From Octopus vulgaris (lineage: Eukaryota), in NCBI GenBank assembly GCA_951406725.2, contig OX597820.1, positions 44,020,001 to 44,084,000 on the forward strand: 64,000 nucleotides of DNA, in the 5' to 3' direction. A program made the translations under genes and the position numbers. A model generated the notes under the pieces. The model did no database searches. It worked only from the letters and a program-made list of their open reading frames with translations, and was not told the origin of the DNA. Below are positions 1,805 to 28,284 of the stretch, piece after piece. Numbering within the stretch: the first letter of the stretch is position 1; the number at the start of each line of letters is the position of its first letter.

Positions 1805-2351
1805 TGGCAGAAACGTAAGCACGCCGGGCGAAATGCGTACCCGTATTTCGTCTGCCGCTACGTTCTGAGATAAATTAAGTACCAGTTATGCACTGGGGTC
1901 GATGTAATCGTTTTAATCCGTTTGTCTGTTCTTGATTGTCCCCTCTGTGCTTATCCCCTTGTAGGTAGTAAAGAAATAGAAATAGGTATTTCGTCTGCGG
2001 TTACGTTCTGAGTTCAAATTTCGCCGAGGTCGACTTTGCCTTTCATCCCTTCGGGATCGATAAATTAAGGACCAGTTACGCACTGGGGTCGATGTAATCG
2101 ACTTAATCCGTGTGTCTGTCCTTGTTTGTCCCCTCTGTGTTTAGCCCCTTGTGAGTAGTAAAGAAGTAGGTATTTCGTCTGCGGTTACGTTCTGAGTTCA
2201 AATTCCGCCGAGGTCGACTTTGCCGTTCATCCTTTCGGGGTCGATAAATTAAGTACCAGTTACGCACTGGGGTCGATATAATCGACTTAATCCATTTGTC
2301 TGTCCTTGTTTGTCCCCTCTGTGTTTAGCCCCTTGTGGGTAGTAAAGAAAT
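1805..2351 (+). mobile_element. SINE family A head plus three head-to-tail body+tail-A units (period about 184 bp)
   Basis: Head TGGCAGAAACGTAAGCAC, B-box-like GAGTTCAAATTCC, core GCCTTTCATCCTTTCGGGGTCGATAAATTAAGTACCAG. Units restart at GGTATTTCGTCTG near 1985 and 2169. Confidence 0.9.
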
Positions 2352-3629
2352 ATATATATATACTTACATATAAATTACAGTCAAGCATTAATTGACAAAT
2401 CACTCACTACCTTAAAATGGAATACCATGTATGTTGCATCTTAATAATGAAAATGTTGAAAGTGAATAAACTAGCTTGTTTTAGTGCATCTACTTTCAAA
2501 ACACATTGCTCACCGACGGATGCATAAAAAGTGTAAGAAAACCCTTTAAAAAAAATACGGTAGCTTAATTTAATCAGAAACTTATGTTACTGTCAGTATA
2601 TTCCGTGTAAAATCTACACGTACAAATGTGTGTGTATACAGTGTACGGTTATGTTATTGGTAGGATCGTAGGATCAACAAGAAAAGTGTCTAGTGAGAAA
2701 TAAATATCATTAAGTAAACACACGATTTAAATGTCAGCTACTATAAGTTTCATACTCGGATTGTACAATAACCAAGCAAGGATTTAAAGCGTGACATATA
2801 CTATCCTGCAATGGCGGTGGATCAAAATAAACATGTCCGATTATTGTACAATCTGCGTATGTAAACATATAGTAACACACATTTAAATCCTGTATGTGTG
2901 TGTATATATATACACCGACAGTGATACATGTATACATTTATATATACAGGCGTACATATATATCTGTGCTAGTGTACCTATGTGTCTACGTCCATATAAC
3001 ACTGAGAAGTAGGAAGAAATTGTTCGCGGATGTTTAACTGTTTTTACACGGGTATATACGCATGTTGAAACATTTTGCGAAATTGGTATTACATTGTGTT
3101 GAGATCTTTTTTTATATATGATACATATATATTATGAACCAGACCGTTCGTTTTAGTCATTAAAATAGCTTTTCACAGTAATTCTTTATTCCTTTTTTGT
3201 TTTTCCTTTATTTTCTCTATATTTCCATGCCTCATCTTTTAAAAAGCTTGAAAAAAAAAAAAAAAAAACGTCGGAAGTTTAACGTGGAATAATTTCAAAA
3301 GCAAGAAATCCGGTTTTAGGTTTTATGGTACGGATCCTTTCGCCGAAGATTAACTTAACTATAGATGTAAGGTCTAAAATGGTAAATAATTGATGCAAAG
3401 ACGAACATTCATCTCTTTTTGCCTGCTGCTGTCATATTAGCCATTGATGAGATACTCCACACAAAATCAGTAGTAACACTGACGATGTATTTCGCTGACA
3501 TATACTTATTTATTTATGTGATTAGTATTTCCTCTCTTTCTTTAACTTATCTCTGGCACAGTGGAATCTCATATATGCCTTTGTGTGTATGCATGTACGT
3601 ATATTTAACATATGTTCACATAATAGCGT

Positions 3630-3677
<48 letters not shown>

Positions 3678-3712
3678 CGCAAATACATACATACATACAT
3701 GAATACATACAT

Positions 3713-3787
<75 letters not shown>

Positions 3788-3811
3788 TGAATGTATATAT
3801 ATGTACATATT

Positions 3812-3844
<33 letters not shown>

Positions 3845-3999
3845 ATATATATATTTGTGTGTGTATGTATGAATATATATATATACATATATAGGTATAT
3901 ATGTATATATGTATTTACGTATATGTATATATATGTATATGTATGCATGTGTATATATATGTATGTATATGTATATATATATATGTATATATATGTATG

Positions 4000-4030
<31 letters not shown>

Positions 4031-4105
4031 GTATGTATGTGTACATATATAATGTATGTATGTATAATGTATATATATGTATATATATGCATATGTATAT
4101 ATATA

Positions 4106-4153
<48 letters not shown>

Positions 4154-4283
4154 TATATATATATATGTATCTATATGTGTGTATATATATGAAATAATGA
4201 ATCCATAAAGATAAATATTTTGTTTCACCTGACAGCGAAATGGATATGAAGTTTGCAGAACTCACTTTTATGGGGAAAAGCGA

Positions 4284-4327
<44 letters not shown>

Positions 4328-4406
4328 TATATTTATACACACACAGACACACACATATATATGTATGTATCTATGTATGATCCATGTATGTATGCATATG
4401 TATATA

Positions 4407-4452
<46 letters not shown>
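3630..4452. repeat. Compound (TA)n/(TATG)n low-complexity tract
   Basis: Seen directly; source of the YIYI ORFs. Confidence 0.95.
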
Positions 4453-4455
<3 letters not shown>

Positions 4456-5108
4456 TGACACTATGATTCGACGTGTATTTTGGTTCTTGTTTTATTCCAC
4501 CCCACAAAATTGCAGGTAATCAATATTTTTTTAAATATTTGATTTGTGTTGGTAAATTATATATCAAAGAAATTTATTACACGAAGATATTTTTAACTTG
4601 AATGCGTTCTGTCCGTCGTCTTTAAACATTAATATCGCAAAAACGAAGTCGTTCTCTGGTAACATGCGCCTTTATAGTAATAGCAATTTTCTTTTGGTTT
4701 TTAAACCAGTCTCAATGTGAGATAATTTTTTTCTATATCTTAATACATCTTAAGTGAGAATCTCATTAAATTTTGTTTTACGTTAAACATTTCGACACTG
4801 TTTATCGCATAACACGTTCCCTTTTCTTCTGTTTTCATAAACATCACGAACTCTCACCCTTTTTTGTAGCAAATTTTTTTCTTTTTTTTTTTTCTCACTG
4901 CTCATTCTACGACCTTTTGAACTATCTTTATAGATAGTACTATCGAAATAACTGTACCTCACTTTCTTTCTAAACTTCCCGCTTAAGGTTTGTTCTAAAT
5001 TGTACTCTTTCTAAATCCTTCATTAACCTTTATTTTATATTGTACTCCTGTTTCGCATTGTTTTCTACGCGCCCCGTTTCTTTATTTTCCCCTGTAACAC
5101 GATCTCTG

Positions 5109-11182: not shown

Positions 11183-11570
11183 AGAATAATAAATAGGAGT
11201 TCTAAATCTTAGGAATCTAGTTGAAGGTTTGTGTTAGCGAAGTTAGTCTAAAGATACAAATTATGTTTAAAATAAGCAATAAACAAAGATGGAGTATAAG
11301 GTTTGTAGGAAAAGAAAAAAAAAAGCACCAATGCATTTAAGATATGTAATCTAGCGTTAAAGTTATAAATCCATGCATATATTAATGTTCCTCTATGTCT
11401 TGATGGAGAAACCGTCAACACTGTCTTTCTTATATATTTTTCTCTATGTTTGATAAAATAAATTGAAATAGAAATACCAAAACTGTCGTTATTATGTATT
11501 TCACAATGTACTTGTTCTTTTAAGGTTATCTAAACAACGACATCACGTGTCAATATCTCATTGTTGTTTA

Positions 11571-12119
11571 AGGCGGCGATCTGACAGAATTGTTAGCACG
11601 CCGGGCGAAATGCTTTGCGGTATTTCGTCTGCGTTACGTTGTGAGTTCAAATTCCGCCGAGGTCGACTTTGCCTTTCATCCTTTCGGGGTCGATAAATTA
11701 AGTACCAGTTACGCACTGGGGTCGATGTAATCGACTTAATACCTATGTCTGTCCTTGTTTGTCCCCTCTGTGTTTAGCCCCTTGTGGGTAATAAAGAAAT
11801 AGGTATTTCGTCTGCCGCTACGTTCTGAGTTCAAATTCCGCCGAGGTCGACTTTGCCCTTCATCCTTTTGGGGTCGATTAAATAAGTACCAGTTACGCAC
11901 TGGGGTCGATGTAATCGACTTAATACCTATGTATGTCCCTGTTTGTCCCCTCTATGTTTAGCCCCTTAGCGTTCTGAGTTCAAATTCCGCCGAAGTGAAC
12001 TTTACCTTTCATCCTTTCGGGGTCGATAAATTAAGTATCCGATGAGCGCTGAGGTCGATATAATCTACTATCCCTAACCCTCAAAATTTCAGGCTTTGTG
12101 CCCAGAAGTAGAAAAGAAT
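11571..12119 (+). mobile_element. SINE family A array: head, two tail-A units, then a final body with a different tail (tail B)
   Basis: Junction AATAAAGAAATA|GGTATTTCGTCTG at 11802. The last unit ends CAAAATTTCAGGCTTTGTGCCCAGAAGTAGAAAAG. Confidence 0.9.
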
Positions 12120-17930: not shown

Positions 17931-19065
17931 ATACACGGTGGATTATGGAAAAGGCAAGAGAATACCAAAAGAAGCTGTACATGTGTTTCATCGATTACTC
18001 CAAAGCCTTTGACAGCATTGATCATGACAAGTTATGGAAATGTCTGAAGGAAAAGAGAACACCTTTACACCTTGTTTAGTTTATTAGATCACTCTATCAA
18101 AACCAAGAAGCTACAGTACGGACACTATATGGCGACACTGATTGGTTTGAGATTGGAAAAGGCACTCGGCAAGGTTGCATCCTGTCACCAGCAGCCTTCA
18201 ACATGTACGCTGAAAAGGTCATGAGGAATGCAGGCCTGGAGGATAGCAGCATTGGAGTGAGGATTGGAGGAAGAAATATTAATAACCTTCGCTATACAGA
18301 TGTTACAACCCTGCTGGCAGAGAGTGGTAAGTGTCTGGAGGATCTTGTCCTACTGGTCAAGAGAGTGAGAAATTTGGGCTGTACCTCAATGTTAAGAAAA
18401 CAAAGATCATGTCAACAGCAGCCACAACAAACATCAGCATCAAGATCGATAATGAAGAGATTGAAGTGGTTGATGATTTCATCTTCCTTGGCTCCAAAAT
18501 AAATAGAGATGATGACTGCACTCCAGAAATAAGACGGCGGATAGCACTAGGCAGAGAGGCAATGGTCAGCATGAGCAGAGTCTGGAAGAGTAGAGACATC
18601 AGACTCGCTACCAAATGCAGATTGGTGAATGCAATTGTCTTCCCAATAGCAAAATATGGATTCGAGACCTGGACACTAAAGAAAGCTGACCAGAAGAGAA
18701 TTAATGCATTCGAGCTTTGGTCTTGGAGAAGACTTTTACGGATTCCATGGACAGCAAGGCTCACCAAGGGAGAAGTTCTTAAGCAGATAAGGCCGAAAAT
18801 GTCGCTAGAAGCTAGGATCACCAAGCATAGATTGGAATATTTCGGTCATATTATGCGGAGAAAATCCCCGGAGAACGACATCATGCTCGGAATGGTCAGT
18901 GGCAAGAGAGGAAGAGGCCGACCAAGAAGCCGCTGGCTTGACACCATCAAGAATGATACCGGAATGGACATAGCCAATCTGAAAGAAGCGGCCCAGGATA
19001 GAACTGACTGGAGGACACTGATCCAATGAGTGACCGAGAGTCGACTTCGACTGAGCGGATAGAGA
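17931..19065 (+). mobile_element. RTE-clade (BovB-like) LINE, 5'-truncated, RT to 3' end, frameshifted
   Basis: [34 protein letters not shown] (decayed YADD), GLYLNVKKTKIM, AFELWSWRRLLRIPWT, YFGHIMR, GKRGRGRPRSRWLD, short 3' UTR. Confidence 0.95.
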
Positions 19066-19582: not shown

Positions 19583-19847
19583 ATTGGTGTCACTATTACA
19601 GATGGCTTGGCTTGGCTTGGCTGCCTATGCGAATATTCCATTTACTTCGAATATATTTCTATAGCAAAACTACTCAACCTATTTCATTCAAATTTTATAC
19701 ATGCCTTACTTAGAGTCCATGTAGTGTTATAAGCTAATAAGAGCAATCTCTTATCTCCTACACTATATCACTATTACGTGTCAAAGTGAAACAATAACAT
19801 CTCTCTATTGCAATGTGAAATACTTACCCTTTAACCTCTCTCTCACA

Positions 19848-19908
<61 letters not shown>

Positions 19909-21179
19909 GCATACATATTCCTCAAAAACACTCTACCACTGCTACTAATAACTGTTGGTAACCCTTTCAGACCTGCCTTACATTCCAACCGGATTCTCGA
20001 AAAAATTGTCCCCTTACATCGCATTCTCATTTCATTACCACGGCAGAACTTACTTCTCGCGAAGGGACAAGGGAAGACGGTAACAGACATTAACCACATG
20101 CTACCTTGTCAAGTAAAATATATTGTCATCCACTTCACCTCTAACCTAGCGAACGGAGAGTTCAAACGACCCCACACCACTAATATCTTTCTTCATCCTT
20201 CTAGCTGTCTGCTATTTTATTAATACGACAAAATTCATGTCCTGACAAACAACATTCAGAACGCAATTCATAATCCCTGTCTCCTTTCCTTGTTACCATT
20301 TCGCTCGTCTTCTCTTTCTATCAAAGCAATACTGATTAACTAAAGCACATTTATTCATTTTGTTGAATTCCGTCCGTAACCTTTTTCATTTGTAAATTAC
20401 ATCAATTTCCCTAAATGCAACCGCACGCGTTTCACAAAGGAAATATGAAACATTTCACTGCTATTTCTACCACGCGCTGCTGCCACGCATTAAAATTTAC
20501 CAATGTTTTTTTGCTTCTTCCTTAATGCGGGCCTGCAGACCTACCAACTTACCTATAACTATCCCTACACTCATATGCAGCATCAACGGCAGTTTCTGCC
20601 CCACGAAACAAAGCTAAGCAATTCATCCAATTGCTCTTTCATTAACTCTTTTCCCATCCAATCTATACGGCAGAGCAGCCATGCATTGACAAACAACACC
20701 CCCAAAAATTCATGTCCACACAAACCACAACATTCTCAACGCAATTCATAACCACTTTCTCCGTTGCTCTTACCATTTCCCTCACCTTGCCTTTCACAAC
20801 TGCTTCCATTTTCATTTTGATGACATCATTTTACTTTACACATTTACTTTTCTACTACCTGTTCGTTATTACCGCAGCAGCTGCAAGTTTGCAACTTATC
20901 TACGCTTACATACTAACCCTTCAATTAATATTTAATACTTAACAGTGTATCTCACTGCATTTCATCATGCTTATTTTAGATCATGCCCCGAAGGAAGATT
21001 TCAATTGGACGAAAAACTGCGAAAGCTGCAAGATCATCAGCAAGAAGGGAAAATTCCTAAAATTCACTGAAGTTTGTATTTGGAGGGGGAGTAGAAGACA
21101 CAGTTGGAATGTGTTAAAAAATATATTTTTAAACTTTGAGATGATCCCCAGCTTTTTTCTGCTAAATAATCAGCGGCCT

Positions 21180-21392
21180 GGTAGTCAATCATCGGTCTCG
21201 ATTTATGACTATAAAGATGGCTCATGAGCGCAGCTTTACTGAGGCAGGGTCTTGCACAGACATTGTATGTCAGTGTCATAGGAAGACCCTTACCGTCAGG
21301 AAGTGCAACAGGGATGCCCTTCCTGGCATCGCTCCTTACTTTCTCATGCGCAAATCGAGATTTCTCAAAAGTAGCTGATGCCTCATGCACAA
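21180..21392 (-). mobile_element. RTE-type LINE 3' fragment with terminal C2H2-like finger
   Basis: IVHEASATFEKSR...RSDARK...YNVCARPCLSKAALMSHLYSH resembles the C..C.R.C.S..GL.SH..H end of some RTE ORFs. Confidence 0.6.
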
Positions 21393-22429
21393 TTCTTAAC
21401 CAAGGCATCCCTAAACCTCCCTTTAAAGTCTTTTGACAGCAGGCAGAGCGTTTCACAAGTGGCGACCTCCCCTTCCACAAAAAGCTAAAGAACTGTCTCT
21501 TTAACCTGATCAACTACGAATCTAATACAACCTGTTCTGTTTGAATTAACAGGTGTACCGTGTGGCCGGTCCAATTTGCCTTTTGTGAAACGCTAGCATG
21601 AAGTATTATCTCATCTACCCTATCTGCCAGGACTGCCGCCAGCAAACACATAGGGTCGACTTGAGATGGGACCTTTGGTATTCGTATTTTGGATGTCCTC
21701 ATACCCATGTATATTGGTATTAAAATCACATCTTCTGTTTCCAAAGATTTTACCGTGCAATTGTGTACCGAATTTTTTCCCTCTGGCTAGATATCTTATA
21801 TCCTGCCAGTTGGGCTTTAGACATTTTTCTACCTTCTCCTCGCTTACTCGCTAGATTTTTCTTTCTTTTCGGCAGGATGTGTTTTAAATATAATTGTTTT
21901 TTTCTTCTCTGTCAATAAAAGCTCTTCTGCGGGTTGAACCTTGAACCTTGACAACGTCGTCTTGAATTTTTACCATGTCCTTGTACATTAAAACGTCACT
22001 TTTCTTCGTCGACAGTTGGCGAGTTCTGTCTCCAGTTGCAGACGCAAAACTTCTTTCCTGTTTACCCTCCTCCGTTTGAAATCCTTTAACTTCGATGCTC
22101 TTCCCTGCAACGTCAGTCCTCGACAGTGGCGGGAATTCGCTCTCAGACGAATCCGTAACATCTTCCAACAATGCTCTTTCCACTTTTCTGGCCTCCAAAT
22201 CTGTCGAATCCTCGTCATATAAATACACACTTTTTGGCATCCTGCCAGTAATTAGTGTTTCCCCTACAGGGAAAAACACACAATAAATTGCAAGCAAAAA
22301 CTATTATACAAATTTTAACAGCAATTAAAACAGGCAGCAACACGGAAGCAATCAACAGAAACTACACTTACTATACAGACGCACTTCGGCAACAATACCA
22401 ACACTTCCAACTCACACAGACGCAATACC
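21393..22429 (-). mobile_element. Tx1/L1-clade LINE copy 1 (5' UTR, decayed ORF1, deletion into a short ORF2 piece)
   Basis: ORF1 remnant EARKVERALLEDVTDSSESEFPPL...IPIYMGMRT is homologous to copy 2. ORF2 piece FLWKGRSPLVKR..CCQK.LKGGLGMPWL is about 90% identical by eye to 23520-23645. Confidence 0.85.
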
Positions 22430-25400
22430 AATTTCTTTATTGCCCACCGGGGGGCCAAACATAGAAATGGACAGAACAACTGATGGGATCAGTGAAGTGA
22501 TATGATTTTACATATAATATGACTTCAAAACTTTTAATACAATAGAAAAAAATGGAATGGAACAAACAATAGAAAAACAAAACAAATGAAGTGATGATCA
22601 GGCCACACTCCGACCACACAAGCCACGATCTACCGCTGGTACTTTTATTTTCTTATTTTTTCCGTCTATTCACACGGTTCTTTGCACGCACACCACTCGT
22701 GCTACATGCTTCCATCTCTTTTGGAACGTACACTCCGACAGACATCTCTTCACCAGCCACAGTTTCCTTTTCAAATGAAAAGAAAAAAATGATCGTAAAT
22801 TGTGGCCAGAGATAAAGTTGCCTGTCTTAATTCATTTTTATCCTAGTCTTCCTTACTGCATCTTTCGCTATTGCTACAACCGTGAGAAAACAATTCTTAC
22901 GATCGTTCGTTAAAACTCCCGGTGGGTCAAGTTTTATAATTCACTCAGTTGACAGCTGTACTCTTCCTTCGCCGGACAACAGGTATTCAGCATAAGCCCA
23001 CATTTCAGTTATCTCCAGACACTGAACAATAGTGTGAGGGACGGTTTCCCTGTCCCCCACCCCGCCCCGGCATCTTGGACAGGTCGGCGACTGACGCTTA
23101 CCATGTCTTGCGAGCTTATCCCAAACGGGCAAGGAACCTCTGTAGCATTGCCAGGTTAAGGACTTTTGGAAGTTGTCCAACCTTCTCAACCCGAATGTAC
23201 GGTGAAACAGGCTGTCCAGTTGAATAAACCCGAGACCTAGAGTCACACCTAGGCCATCGTCACATTCAGACTCTACCAACCCACTATATAAAATCCGTGT
23301 GGAACCCCCACCTCTGGCGTTGCCCGAGCGCCGGTATAGCAAGAGGCCCTTACGGCACTCTTTATGCCACTCACTCGACCTCGGTCTACGAGAACACCAG
23401 GCTTCCTGATCGCAAAAGTTTTGAACTCGGGGAAGATTTGTCTGGCCAGCGGAAAACACACTCGTCCACAATCCAGGAGAATCCAGAGGTGCCTCAACCT
23501 CAACGCATGTCTGAGCATTATTAACCAAGGCATCCCTAAACCTCCCTTTAAAGGCTTTTGACAGCAGACACAGCGTTTCACAAGTGGCGACCTGCCCTTC
23601 CACAAAAAGCGAAAGAGCTGTCTCTCATACCTGATCAACCACGAATCCGGAGAGGGCAGGACGGTCAGGCGGTAGGTAATGACAGATGCGATAAACACAT
23701 TTACCACGTCCGCCCTCCCTTTCAGGGATAGACACCGCCAAGACCAGGTCTTGACTACTGCAGCCACCCTGATCAATATCTCCGTCCAGTTCATCTCTAT
23801 CTGGAGGCCTGGTCCAAACCAAACTCCCAGCAACTTAACCGGTCCCTCCGCCCAGCGCCCAACAACGCTGTCTAAAGGCATCAACTTGCCAACCTAGGTG
23901 CCGAGCTGCAAGTCGACCGACTTTTCCCGGTTAATCTTTGCTCCTGCCACCTCCTCGTAAGCCTCAATAGTTTTACCCACCTCACGTAGGCTTGCTACCG
24001 AGGTTACGCTGATTGTGATATCATCCGCGTAAGCCGTAACAAACTCATCTACACCTGGTTCTCTCGGGATGCCACTCAACCTTCGCAGTAGGGACTCGAG
24101 AGCCATTATATACAAAAGTGGTGAGAGCGGACATCCTTGACGAACCGAGCGTCTGATGCAGAGCGGCTTCGAAACGAAACCGTTCACCCGAACTATCGAG
24201 TCAATGTTGTGGTACAAAGCGATAAACCACCTGAGGAAGCTAAGGCCTTGGCCGAACCGCGCAAGCACACTCGCCAGGTATAGATGGTCAACCCAATCAA
24301 AAACTTTAGACTGGTCTAAAATGTACCAATACCCCACCTTTGCCAGATTTATTACCAACCCTCTATGGTATAGCGAATAAGATGGAGGGTATCCTGAATG
24401 GTTCTGCCTGAGATGGCACATGTTTGTGCCTCCCCGATTATACCATTCGCGACGCGTGCCAACCTTTTTGCTAAGACCTTGGCCAAAATCTTCACTTCTG
24501 TATTTAACAGAGTGATGGGCCTGAAATTCTCTATAACATCCCCCTTGTCCGGGTCCTTTCTGACAAACGTCACTACTCCCCAGCGCACAGATCTGGGGAT
24601 TAACCCATTCTGTTGCCAGTTCGCGTACATGTCAGCCAGTAGTTGCCCGAACAAGTCTGACATACATTTATACAGCTCGTACGGAAGACCATCATGTCCC
24701 GGCGACTTACCCGCTTTACAGTCGGCCAAAGCCTCCATCACCTCCACGGGCGTGATTGGCCCTTCGCAAGACTCCGCATCCGACCCCGAGAGGCACGGCA
24801 ACCCAGCAGCCCGGCAGCCGGCCACACTGGAAACATCGTGGTTTACGCCCCTCAACAAAAATATTTAGAACTTCCTCCCCTACTTCCCCGATTTCTGGGA
24901 GCTGTTCTCATTCCCATGTAAATTGAGATTAACATTGTGTCTTCCGGCTCTAAAAATTTTAGAGTATTTTTGTCCCGTTTCTGCATTCTTGAACCTCACC
25001 ACGATGGTTCCAAACTTCTTTCCTCTGGCTAGATATGTAATGTTCTGCCAGATGGGTTTTCAATTTTTTGCTCACATATTTTATCAATTTTACAAGCTTC
25101 TAAGCAGAATGTCTTAAAAATAATGATTTTCTTTTTTTCCTCTGTTAATTCTTCTTCTGGTATTTCCACTTTTACTATTCCATCTCGTTCCGTTATCATA
25201 TCTTTATAGTTTAATAATTATTTTATGTCAGTTGACAGCAGTCGCGTTCCACCACCAGCCGCTAGCGCAAAAATGTCTTTCTTTATTTTGGATGGTCCTT
25301 TCTTCGGTCTTTCTTTTCGTGTTCGTAACTCTTGGTAATGCCGGAAATTCGCTTTCCGACACATCAGAAACGTTATCAAAAATTAAGCTTTCTATTTTCT

Positions 25401-25630
25401 TTGCTTCTCGCTCAATCGATGATTCGTCCCCCGACGAAGACGAACTTTTCAGCATCTTGCCAGCAATTAATATTTTCCCCCACAGGGGAAACCCCAGAGA
25501 GCTTTCGAAAGGAAACTATGCTACAACAATTTTTTTTAACAATAAGTCCAACAATAGGCACAACAAGAGATATAACAATTAACAGAAACTTACGAACACA
25601 CTCCAACAATAAATTTTCGGTAACACACGT
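22430..25630 (-). mobile_element. Tx1/L1-clade LINE copy 2 (both ends present, endonuclease region deleted, frameshifted)
   Basis: KSPGHDGLPYELY, FRPITLLNTEVKILAKVLAKRL, LDQSKVFD.VDH, VRQGCPLSPLLY, AYADDIT, LSLKGR, GGLGMP, CPRC...ETVPH..VQC, FQKRW. 3' UTR ends GTGGGCAATAAAGAAATT. Confidence 0.93.
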
Positions 25631-25688
25631 ACGAAATATCGCTAAGCATTTCGCCCGACGTGCTAACGATTCTGCCAGCTCGCCGCCC
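25631..25688 (-). mobile_element. SINE family A head, cut off at the Tx1 5' junction
   Basis: Minus strand GGCGGCGAGCTGGCAGAATCGTTAGCACGTCGGGCGAAATGCTTAGCGATATTTCGT, then Tx1 sequence. Confidence 0.9.
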
Positions 25689-26555
25689 TAAAAATTGTAA
25701 TGTTTTCAGTTCAAGTCTGCTTGGCACAAAGTCAGCAGTGTGTTGGGGTGAGGGAGTCGATTACATCAACCCAAGTGCTTAACTGGTACTTTATTCATCG
25801 ATCTCGAAAAGATGACCGCAGCAGAATGAATTTGAAGAAGTGCCGCAAAGCATCTTCCCAACGCTCTAACGATTCTGCCAGCCTAGAAAGGAAGAGAGCA
25901 AAAGTTAACTTGGACGGGATTTGAGCTCAAGACAATACTCCGGAAGAAATACTGCCGAGCATTTCGTCCAGAACTTTATTGATACTATCAATCCATTAAT
26001 AATTCGTTTATTGGCCACAAGGGCTACCATAATAATAGTTTTAATTCTTCGTACTCCTCTCCCCTTCTCTCATCATTAAGCAAGAAGGGTCAAGTGTCCG
26101 CCAGTTCATGATGATGATGATGATGATAGTGGTTGTGGTGATGATGACAATAGTAGCATGAAGATAGTAGTGGTCGTGGGACGATGATGGTGATGATGAT
26201 CCTGCCAAGGATGTTCTGTGCAATCACGTGACATCTCACCCGTCCTTTTTTAAGTGACAGCATCCCTTATCTTTTCTTTTATCTCAAACCTTCCACCTGT
26301 TGTCACTTGACCTTTCGCCCAGTTTTGGTCCCCCTTCCATCATCCATTGTGTTTCTCGAAGCAATGTGGTGGGCGCTATGAGATCGCTCACATTACTAGA
26401 AATAACAGCCAAATCTCCCTCAGATCACTGTTGTCTTCTTATAAAAGAATACTAGATATACTGCTAGAAATATAAACAAGATGGTCACAAAAGCAACGTC
26501 TTCAACCTTGCCTAAAAAATAGTTGCAGCAATATCTATGAGCATTTTGCGATATA

Positions 26556-26625
<70 letters not shown>

Positions 26626-26627
<2 letters not shown>

Positions 26628-26745
26628 GGTGCGTTGCCTAGTGGTTAGGGCGTTGCATTCACGATCACTAGATCGCTGGTTCGACTCTCCAGACTAGGCA
26701 GCACGTTATGTTCTTGAGCAAAACATTTCATTTCACCTTGCTCAG
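26626..26745 (+). mobile_element. tRNA-derived SINE head fragment
   Basis: TGCCTAGTGGTTAGGGCG...GGTTCGACTC followed by CORE-like TGTTCTTGAGCAAAACATTT. Confidence 0.7.
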
Positions 26746-26749
26746 CTGT

Positions 26750-27625
26750 AAATATCCTCCTGAACCTACAAAAGAGATGAGTAGTACCAAATTACCATTC
26801 CTAGATAGAATGGCAATTAAAAAGGACACCACCATTACCACAGATATATACCACAAATACACGGACGCACATCAATACCTGAATTGTAAGTCATGCTATC
26901 CACCACATACAAAACACAACATTCCATACTTTGTACTCTACTTATAGAAAATGGCATACAGCGAGCTATAAAAATACCCATACAACAACTGAGAATAACC
27001 GAAAGAAGAGGATAACTGGAACAGGTCATACCATTTATAGTGACACACAACCCATGTCACCAGAATATCTTCAACATTGCCAAAGCAAACCTACCAACCA
27101 TTGCTCAAATGAATTAAAAGATATAATCACAGATCGAACTATGGTTCTTAGTAAAAGACAGTATAAAAACTTGAAAAAAATTGTTAAAAGGCAAAGTTTG
27201 ACCTTAGCAAAAGAAGACCAATCATTCACTGTATCTAAATGCAGTGATAGCCAATGTGGAACACGTGCCAATTCATTCATACTGGCCAATATAGGAACAC
27301 AAATGCAGGGAAAATATTCAAAAGCAAATATTTAATTTACTGCATCAAATATCACAAAAGTAAAAATTTTACTTACTGCACCAAATGCCTAAATTGTGAA
27401 GAACTCTATATGGACACACTGAAAATGCACTATCAGAACGTTCACATGTGCACCGACACAAATTAGAGAACCAGATGTCCGTCAGATACCTTTGAGTAAC
27501 CAGCATTTGAGTAAATGCAGACGGAAAATATATTTTCATTCTACAAACTATACAGTCCAAGTGAAATTGAGAGAAAAATCAGAGAAAAGAACTTTATTAA
27601 TAAATACCAAACCAAGCTAAATAAA
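26750..27625 (+). mobile_element. Penelope-like element, RT C-terminus to GIY-YIG end (decayed)
   Basis: LPFLD...TDIYHKYTDAHQYLNCKSCYPPHTKHNIPY; IPFIVTHNP; YCTKCLNCEELY; terminal FINKY..KLN-like motif. Hammerhead about 500 bp downstream. Confidence 0.88.
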
Positions 27626-28111
27626 CAATAATAATAATACTTAGAGGTACTCTTTCTACTGCTACGACCACTAACAACACTAAAGGTGCTCATTATGATG
27701 ATAGCATGAAAATACCAGCGAAAAGTCAGTAAAAATAATCTTATTTTCAGGTTTAAATTTCTATTACCACAGCTATTCCTACCGCCGCCACCGCCACCAA
27801 CAGCGACAACAATAATAAAGGAGATGATAATGATGATGGCGATAAATGAAATATAAAAATCGCTGGGAAATAATATTTACAACATTTCTAAAAATAGACC
27901 AACAATTACTGCTTTGGCCAGGGTCAAAACACAGGTCTCTTGACATGTTCAGCAAACCATGACGCCTAAACCAAACAATCAAATTAAATAAATAAGTAAA
28001 ATCACACACTGATTAGTCAGAATACAGTTTGCTAAATTTAACATTCTGGAACACAGCTTATCCACTGACTACAGTTAGAAATTGTAAAACATAACTGTCA
28101 CCACGACTATA

Positions 28112-28156
28112 TGAGTCTGAAGACTGCATAGTTTAATGCATGAAAGTACTAGTTCA
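28112..28156 (+). ncRNA. Minimal type I hammerhead ribozyme at the 3' end of the Penelope-like element
   Basis: TGAGT-CTGAAGA-C-TGCAT(agttta)ATGCA-T-GAAA-GTAC-TA-GTTCA. Palindromic GTAC stem III is typical of dimerising PLE hammerheads. Confidence 0.75.
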
Positions 28157-28284
28157 ATCAGAATGGACATTTAATATTCTATCATTTCGTTATATTCTCG
28201 TATCTAATATAACATCACTATAAGTTTGTGAATAAAACGTAAAAATCAAAGTTGGAATTTCTTTGAGTAATATATATATATATA

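Follow-up and report, generated by a model that had tools for sequence, protein, structure and literature searches.

Several LINE (long interspersed element) families of the Tx1 clade insert at fixed sequences within multicopy targets. The excerpts of Kojima 2015 (PMC4494074) list Tx1L in Tx1D of Xenopus, Keno in U2 snRNA, Kibi and Koshi in microsatellites, Tx1-9_AMi in Harbinger, and Tx1-8_Crp and Tx1-4_AMi in long terminal repeat elements, with piggyBac and Mariner as further targets. Crocodilian Tx1-Mar LINEs, according to the same source, prefer fixed sites in another transposon, and SINEU, a short interspersed element (SINE), shares their target (PMC4494074). Here we describe an octopus LINE lineage of the L1/Tx1 group whose target is a SINE, starting from a stack of two LINE copies inside one SINE in a 64,000-nucleotide stretch of the Octopus vulgaris genome (GCA_951406725.2, contig OX597820.1, positions 44,020,001 to 44,084,000; the window). 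Our reading, to which we give a probability of about 80%, is that this lineage inserted almost only at one position of the SINE, where GGTATTTCGTC begins between its A and B boxes, likely through its own endonuclease nicking and priming there.

Like the listed Tx1 families, the octopus LINEs carry an APE-type endonuclease and insert sequence-specifically into a multicopy target, but a SINE is not named among the targets in the excerpts of PMC4494074. The system shares with Tx1-Mar and SINEU tandem insertions that sandwich a duplication, two target hot spots and, on some LINE families, small-RNA-derived 5' additions, whereas the target there is a third element, Mariner-N4_AMi (excerpts of PMC4494074). 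In the octopus the SINE itself is the target; it bears a tail of the LINE clade, and its own head is among the places where it lands. The 5' junctions of R2 elements look homology-made. R2 elements are also co-transcribed with 28S rRNA (excerpts of PMC4494074), and upstream target sequence on the RNA and homology-like 5' junctions are probable points in common with our element; R2 differs in having a restriction-like nuclease and a host-gene target. L1-Tx1 families have been counted in an octopus, with their targets not analysed in the excerpts of PMC13282606. Our literature search found no report of a SINE-targeting LINE; Repbase, Dfam and subscription papers lay outside that search and may already record the target. 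By analogy, the element appears to work as known site-specific Tx1 LINEs do, its new aspect being the SINE target.

An earlier note on this DNA had read, along the minus strand, a SINE head, a short motif, LINE copy 2, the motif again and LINE copy 1. On re-reading, the junctions are as described there. The parts of the stack are the following (UTR, untranslated region; ORF, open reading frame; RT, reverse transcriptase; Pol III, RNA polymerase III; nt, nucleotides).

25641..25687, minus strand: 5' head of the SINE that serves as target; a Pol III A-box-like TGGCAGAATCG occupies 25677-25667
25631..25640, minus strand: target motif on the 5' side, GATATTTCGT, followed by 5 nt, ACGTG, that are common to the duplicated paralogs
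22430..25630, minus strand: copy 2, family B, with 5' UTR, partial ORF1, frameshifted RT and zf-RVT, and 3' UTR
22417..22429, minus strand: middle copy of the target motif, GGTATTGCGTCTG, a G variant common to four duplicated paralogs
21393..22416, minus strand: copy 1, family A, with 5' UTR, partial ORF1 and ORF2 residues 813-854, the 3' end being lost

The SINE head is 89% identical over 62 nt to an intact SINE at 11567-11628, and in intact SINEs of the window the same head runs on into GGTATTTCGTCTG. Copy 2 ends in AATAAAGAAATT (22441-22430), without poly(A). Mapped on an intact relative, it is frameshifted and lacks ORF2 residues 1-425, which removes the whole endonuclease; its remaining fragments match RVT_1 and zf-RVT. 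In copy 1 the partial ORF1 is fused directly to ORF2 residues 813-854, and the 3' end is gone together with the downstream half of the SINE. The window locus is a decayed relic with no sign of function.

To follow the motif beyond the window, it was scored at up to 2 mismatches from GGTATTTCGTC. The motif occurs at 1.85e-4 of positions in 400 kb taken at arbitrary positions, and the per-junction expectation is 5.6e-4. The 3' end of copy 2 is followed by the motif at 28 of 30 loci (21 continuing into an in-register SINE body, 5 meeting family A, and 2 otherwise). At seven further loci the motif is present in five and the SINE body in six. This query also picks up some ends of family E, a close relative of family B. 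The earlier note had proposed tabulating the sequence downstream of such ends; after four duplicates of the window stack and one tandem duplicate were dropped, the motif proved strongly enriched, at 28 of 32 independent family B 3' ends against the 5.6e-4 expected. The 5' side agrees. Family B 5' ends follow the motif in 28 of 30 rows (not de-duplicated), 15 of them after a SINE head and 13 after a SINE tail, as do family A 5' ends in all 28 rows, six of which represent one duplicated stack and two a single locus. Family E has the SINE head before it and the motif after it in all 18 copies retrieved, one of which (L276) lacks the SINE body past the motif.

Sister families C and D, with similar tails, show the motif at 0/30 and 0/30 ends, so the abundance of the SINE does not account for the pattern. 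Family C flanks are varied and family D favours GGATG, although a single C copy occupies a second site of the SINE head and a single D copy has entered the SINE core. Target-specific LINEs have been defined by the presence of one target in more than 20% of flanks (excerpts of PMC4494074). Here one target occupies 28/32 flanks in B and 18/18 in E, against 0/60 in the two control families, and the claim of the earlier note that the family uses a single insertion site, placed between the SINE's A and B boxes, holds genome-wide. In four sequencing runs carrying four other organism labels, none among the listed pieces bridged a LINE-SINE junction with 31 letters per side (the best reached 29). Contigs from these runs cover both the LINE end and the SINE; no RNA run was among the sequencing runs listed.

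Several observations indicate that these are separate insertions. Around family E, pairwise identity is 88% for the SINE heads and 87% for the bodies, compared with 98-99% for the first and last stretches of the element. The SINE halves are far more diverged than the element between them, which marks the insertions as independent and speaks against movement of a whole chimera. Further, where the element sits at a variant or non-SINE site, the same locus-specific 11-16 nt stand at both of its ends (L126, 15 nt; L129, 16 nt; L114, 11 nt; also L102 and L275). The two sides disagree in several other copies. Most true target duplications span 14-16 bp, and we infer that the cut falls at the start of the motif, with a duplication of about 15 bp. 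The motif is therefore duplicated upon insertion, as the earlier note proposed, with a length of about 15 bp, close to the 13 read there, and in one subfamily the 5' copy is borne by the element.

That subfamily is marked by a 21-nt head variant, AAATGCATTGTGGTATATCGT, which has eight exact matches in the genome. All eight lie immediately before a family B 5' end, with unrelated DNA upstream, and the two copies with both ends covered have the ordinary motif at the 3' end. The alternative of a motif fixed in the element's own 5' end, which the earlier note had raised against targeting, thus holds in part, at the 5' end of this subfamily (8/8). On this pattern the AAATGCATTGTGGTATATCGT piece travels with the element, probably as part of an RNA whose start lies in a donor SINE head. 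Both junctions of family E carry a C-variant head that is present in 4 of 33 random free SINEs, reflecting either strict recognition or carriage. Family E follows a SINE tail in 0/18 copies, compared with 13/30 for family B.

The earlier note had taken the two copies for members of one family. They belong to different families and both are defective: their 5' regions are only about 70% alike, on which basis copy 2 and copy 1 were assigned to families B and A. The 3' 700 nt of a full element of the copy 1 family are 75% identical to copy 2. Elsewhere family A is represented by a complete LINE with two ORFs, embedded in the SINE at either end (L334), which rules out copy 1 as an ORF1-only passenger. 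Among the family A loci examined (8 of the 16 first chosen), all three with a LINE 3' end lie in the SINE.

An intact relative of copy 2 is a family E element, L269, at 91.7% DNA identity. Intact family E encodes a 1134-amino-acid ORF2 with APE, RT and a C-terminal zinc-finger domain, complete in three copies (L269-L271). A CCHC zinc knuckle in ORF1 is a feature of the Tx1 clade, and zf-CCHC scores above the curated cut-off in ORF1 of L270 and L296. Among solved structures, ORF2 is closest to LINE-1 ORF2 (E=2e-64 over residues 6-868), with R2 at E=2e-20; the APE-RT-zinc-domain order and the greater nearness to LINE-1 than to R2 place the element in the L1 group. The nearest named protein relative is from Argonauta, no protein named Tx1 was among the protein matches, and Atlas matches were to RT/APE clusters only. 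Membership of the Tx1 clade is likely from these sequence features, the tree holding no named Tx1 or L1 reference. In this quick tree, B and E form a single clade (SH-aLRT 99) beside C, D and F/G; B_L122 was excluded for short overlap, and four rows fill less than half of the columns.

Family E, a young family, comprises L269-L278 and L295-L302, at 95.7-99.7% identity to L269, and its endonuclease reads GDSN where older copies and sister families have GDFN. Families F/G (L279-L294, L303-L308) are very young, at 95-99.9% identity, with an ORF2 of about 1132 amino acids. They have several other fixed targets, such as CATGGAGGAAAGCACC in another repeat, and form head-to-tail stacks with a spacing of about 5.26 kb; their copies differ from one another in short stretches of the endonuclease. 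At the GGATG site of family D (L201-L230), three or four copies have a more extended repeat in common downstream (GGATGTAGAGGGTT...). Immediately behind a family C tail and ahead of a B-like RT region, L104 (ori 3349-4602) contains a 418-amino-acid CCHC ORF1-like frame, which suggests a mixed-family stack or a passenger.

The target SINE is abundant: heads occur at 52 per 400 kb, or about 360,000 genome-wide by extrapolation to a 2.8-Gb genome, and the commonest forms of the A and B boxes are TGGCAGAAACGT and GAGTTCAAATTC. It is likely one of the OR1/OR2 CORE SINEs of octopus. Ohshima and Okada reportedly described these in 1994 as tRNA-derived, abundant and equipped with Pol III boxes. Mentions of OR1/OR2 in the excerpts of PMC4758252 and PMC4824008 include no LINE partner or self-targeting. 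SINEs are defined as tRNA-derived at >=60% identity to a tRNA (excerpts of PMC3531059); ARAGORN and Rfam found no tRNA in the window, and relaxed ARAGORN gave no SINE head among the matches listed. The commonest young form of the SINE has a 3' tail that shares 35-43 of its last 46 nt with six families of the LINE clade.

Two SINE arrays lie elsewhere in the window.

11571..11967, plus strand: uninterrupted SINE with a LINE-like tail, then a head-less 184-nt unit beginning at the target motif
1805..2352, plus strand: second SINE array, a head followed by 184-nt units, every unit beginning at the target motif

Tandem SINE arrays in the clam Scapharca broughtonii likewise have one complete head followed by head-less units; they have been ascribed to unequal recombination between duplications, and a site-specific LINE is not described in the excerpts of PMC11481361. 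In a random sample of 41 octopus SINE tails, 13 run into the target site followed by a SINE body and 4 reach the second site of the SINE head, so that the SINE lands in its own head in 17 of 41 cases; of the rest, 9 meet other GGTA sites and 15 end elsewhere. In all, 22 of the 41 tails stop at the target or at another GGTA site, several of them with duplications of 13-15 bp that begin GGTA. At non-SINE sites, its insertions show duplications of 13-16 nt, several of which begin GGTA. Copying of this GGTA from the RNA was considered and rejected where a duplication was legible, as it begins GGTA on both sides in 4 of 8 cases at other GGTA sites with a head. One paralog of the window locus (L093) carries an extra SINE unit at the 5' motif together with the C-variant head; the unit is missing from the window and from two other paralogs, all of which show the ordinary head. 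The incoming C-variant head fits an insertion that overwrote the resident one, and could not be accounted for by loss of the unit from the other three paralogs.

The second hot spot, near the A box, is occupied in L108 (ori 7675), L116, L119, L125, L195 and L270, where the tail is followed by AGAAACGTTAGC; one family C-like copy also lies there. In L170, from the random sample, a SINE is inserted at GGTACTTAATTTA, antisense to the SINE core, with a 13-nt duplication.

The stack itself belongs to a larger duplicated unit.

19668..28280, minus strand: duplicated segment of about 8.6 kb bearing the stack, with pieces at eight other loci, 87-96% identical
C7:42.9, 47.4, 48.6, 71.2, 80.4 Mb; C6:55.7, 97.6 Mb; C5:62.5 Mb: relatives of the segment in the same genome

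Seven of the eight other loci contain all or some of the stack, recognisable by identical deletions or flanks, and the upstream flank exists in four copies. These shared deletions and flanks indicate that the stack goes back to one old event that was later duplicated. The double insertion proposed by the earlier note is therefore real, but it arose once, was copied within a larger segment and is not peculiar to this locus. In some paralogs the segment is bounded by a short repeat that ends in a CA microsatellite and TATATAGAGA (window 19668-19835; L095:3440-3894; L096, L328). This repeat, presumably Helentron-like, may have carried the segment. On the proposed order, copy 1 and then copy 2, the structure is silent. 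A weak hint in its favour comes from paralog L097, whose B copy falls outside the clade of the window B copy (clade support 0.997) and is 91.5% identical to it, compared with 93.5% for copy 1 and its flank (z = 2.0). This hints that family A came first and that B may have hit the upstream motif twice; an early split or gene conversion would fit too.

Just upstream of the target SINE head lies an older decayed SINE (25742-25969, minus strand). On the other side, a fragment at 21064-21392 (minus strand) is fused to copy 1, ends in a C2H2-like stretch and is common to the paralogs; we take it to be the 3' end of an RTE-type LINE. An unnamed repeat at 20000-21050 is present in at least 40 scored copies, 76-94% identical, and contains a 90-nt repeat within it, and a decayed RT-bearing LINE fragment at 17950-19030 has no relation to the SINE-targeting element.

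In the mechanism we propose, the APE endonuclease would nick the bottom strand at the start of the motif, the RT would copy the RNA starting from its AATAAAGAAATT end, and a second cut would fall about 15 nt downstream. Where the RNA had begun upstream, in a donor SINE head, the cDNA would pair with the target head and could overwrite it with the donor variant. The motif would then stand at both new junctions, leaving the site reusable and allowing elements to stack. The SINE is likely mobilised by several families of the LINE clade; moved by a GGTA-cutting family, it would often enter another SINE head and its A and B boxes would stay in line. Insertion of the LINE would split the boxes by 5 kb. 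The window stack would represent one old double insertion, of family A and likely then of family B, that decayed and was copied within the duplicated segment.

A number of points weigh against this account. The nuclease step is one that we infer from sequence; the loci are best-scoring matches and not a random draw; and no motif within 2 mismatches follows 4 of the 32 independent B ends. The SINE tail is nearer to the non-targeting families (G 43, D 41, F 40 and C 38 of 46 nt) than to B or E (35), so the main carrier of the SINE may lie outside the targeting lineage. Only 13 of 41 tails reach the target and SINE body, and 24 run into other DNA. Even the 13 are an upper bound on self-insertion, since some 415-nt dimers appear to have moved as units and arrays may have grown by recombination; two such dimers (L136, L168) have apparent duplications on both sides, exact over 6-7 nt and longer by eye. 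Finally, the A-then-B order depends on a single paralog, with z about 2.

Specificity might instead arise at priming, if a loose nuclease nicked many sites and only those that pair with the RNA 3' end or with SINE read-through were used. The GAAAT of the tail and the ATTTC of the target are complementary, a hairpin can form across the junction in L269, and members of a subfamily have the same first base past the tail (C in 17 of the 18 copies of family E), all of which would suit such a process. However, the L269 fold is no better than shuffles (z = +0.77), and no z-score was significant when the tails and the head were folded as RNA. The duplicated bases at variant sites, the first GG included, are locus-specific and so come from the target; the absence of family E behind SINE tails, where family B is frequent, indicates that DNA upstream of the nick is recognised; and F/G copies that are nearly identical differ in both target and short endonuclease stretches. 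We consider priming an unlikely source of the specificity.

Still less probable is that the SINE is by-catch, as the commonest carrier of a site in a lineage that evolved to cut a host Pol III gene or a short GGTAT. Insertions at non-SINE GGTAT sites do occur (L114, L129, L018), sister family D favours the short GGATG, and known Tx1 families target small-RNA genes (excerpts of PMC4494074). Against this, a tRNA-like gene site was found at 0/37 B loci and 0/18 E loci (the motif was not sought in the tRNA genes of the genome), nearly all B and E loci lie in the SINE or a stack, and family E is restricted to a single head variant that few random heads carry. Amplification of one chimera of SINE head, LINE and SINE body as a unit, with no targeting at all, describes what happened to the local stack, which spread within its duplicated segment, and would accommodate the element-borne 5' head variant of one subfamily. 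As a general explanation it is very improbable: divergence of the SINE halves that flank family E exceeds that of the element by 10 points, the SINE bodies downstream of family B come from several SINE subtypes, 5'-truncated copies keep the same 3' junction, and the duplications flank the LINE itself.

Within one genome, the sister families form a series in which C has no evident target, D a 5-nt preference, F/G several long fixed targets and B/E the SINE site. Some of these families retain an intact ORF2, making the gain or switch of specificity of an APE endonuclease directly testable. The targeting system would also account for the 184-nt SINE arrays, and chimeric SINE-LINE consensuses are to be expected in repeat libraries built for this genome. 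More tentatively, and in our view with somewhat less than an even chance of being right, the LINE and SINE may form a closed loop, in which the LINE uses the passenger SINE of its clade as both landing site and 5' leader, LINE subfamilies track SINE subfamilies, and insertion of SINE into SINE overwrites heads and founds dimeric SINEs. If so, the niche of the carrier would be constructed and reworked by its passenger SINE, and the intact young family could serve as a natural nickase for several hundred thousand genomic sites.

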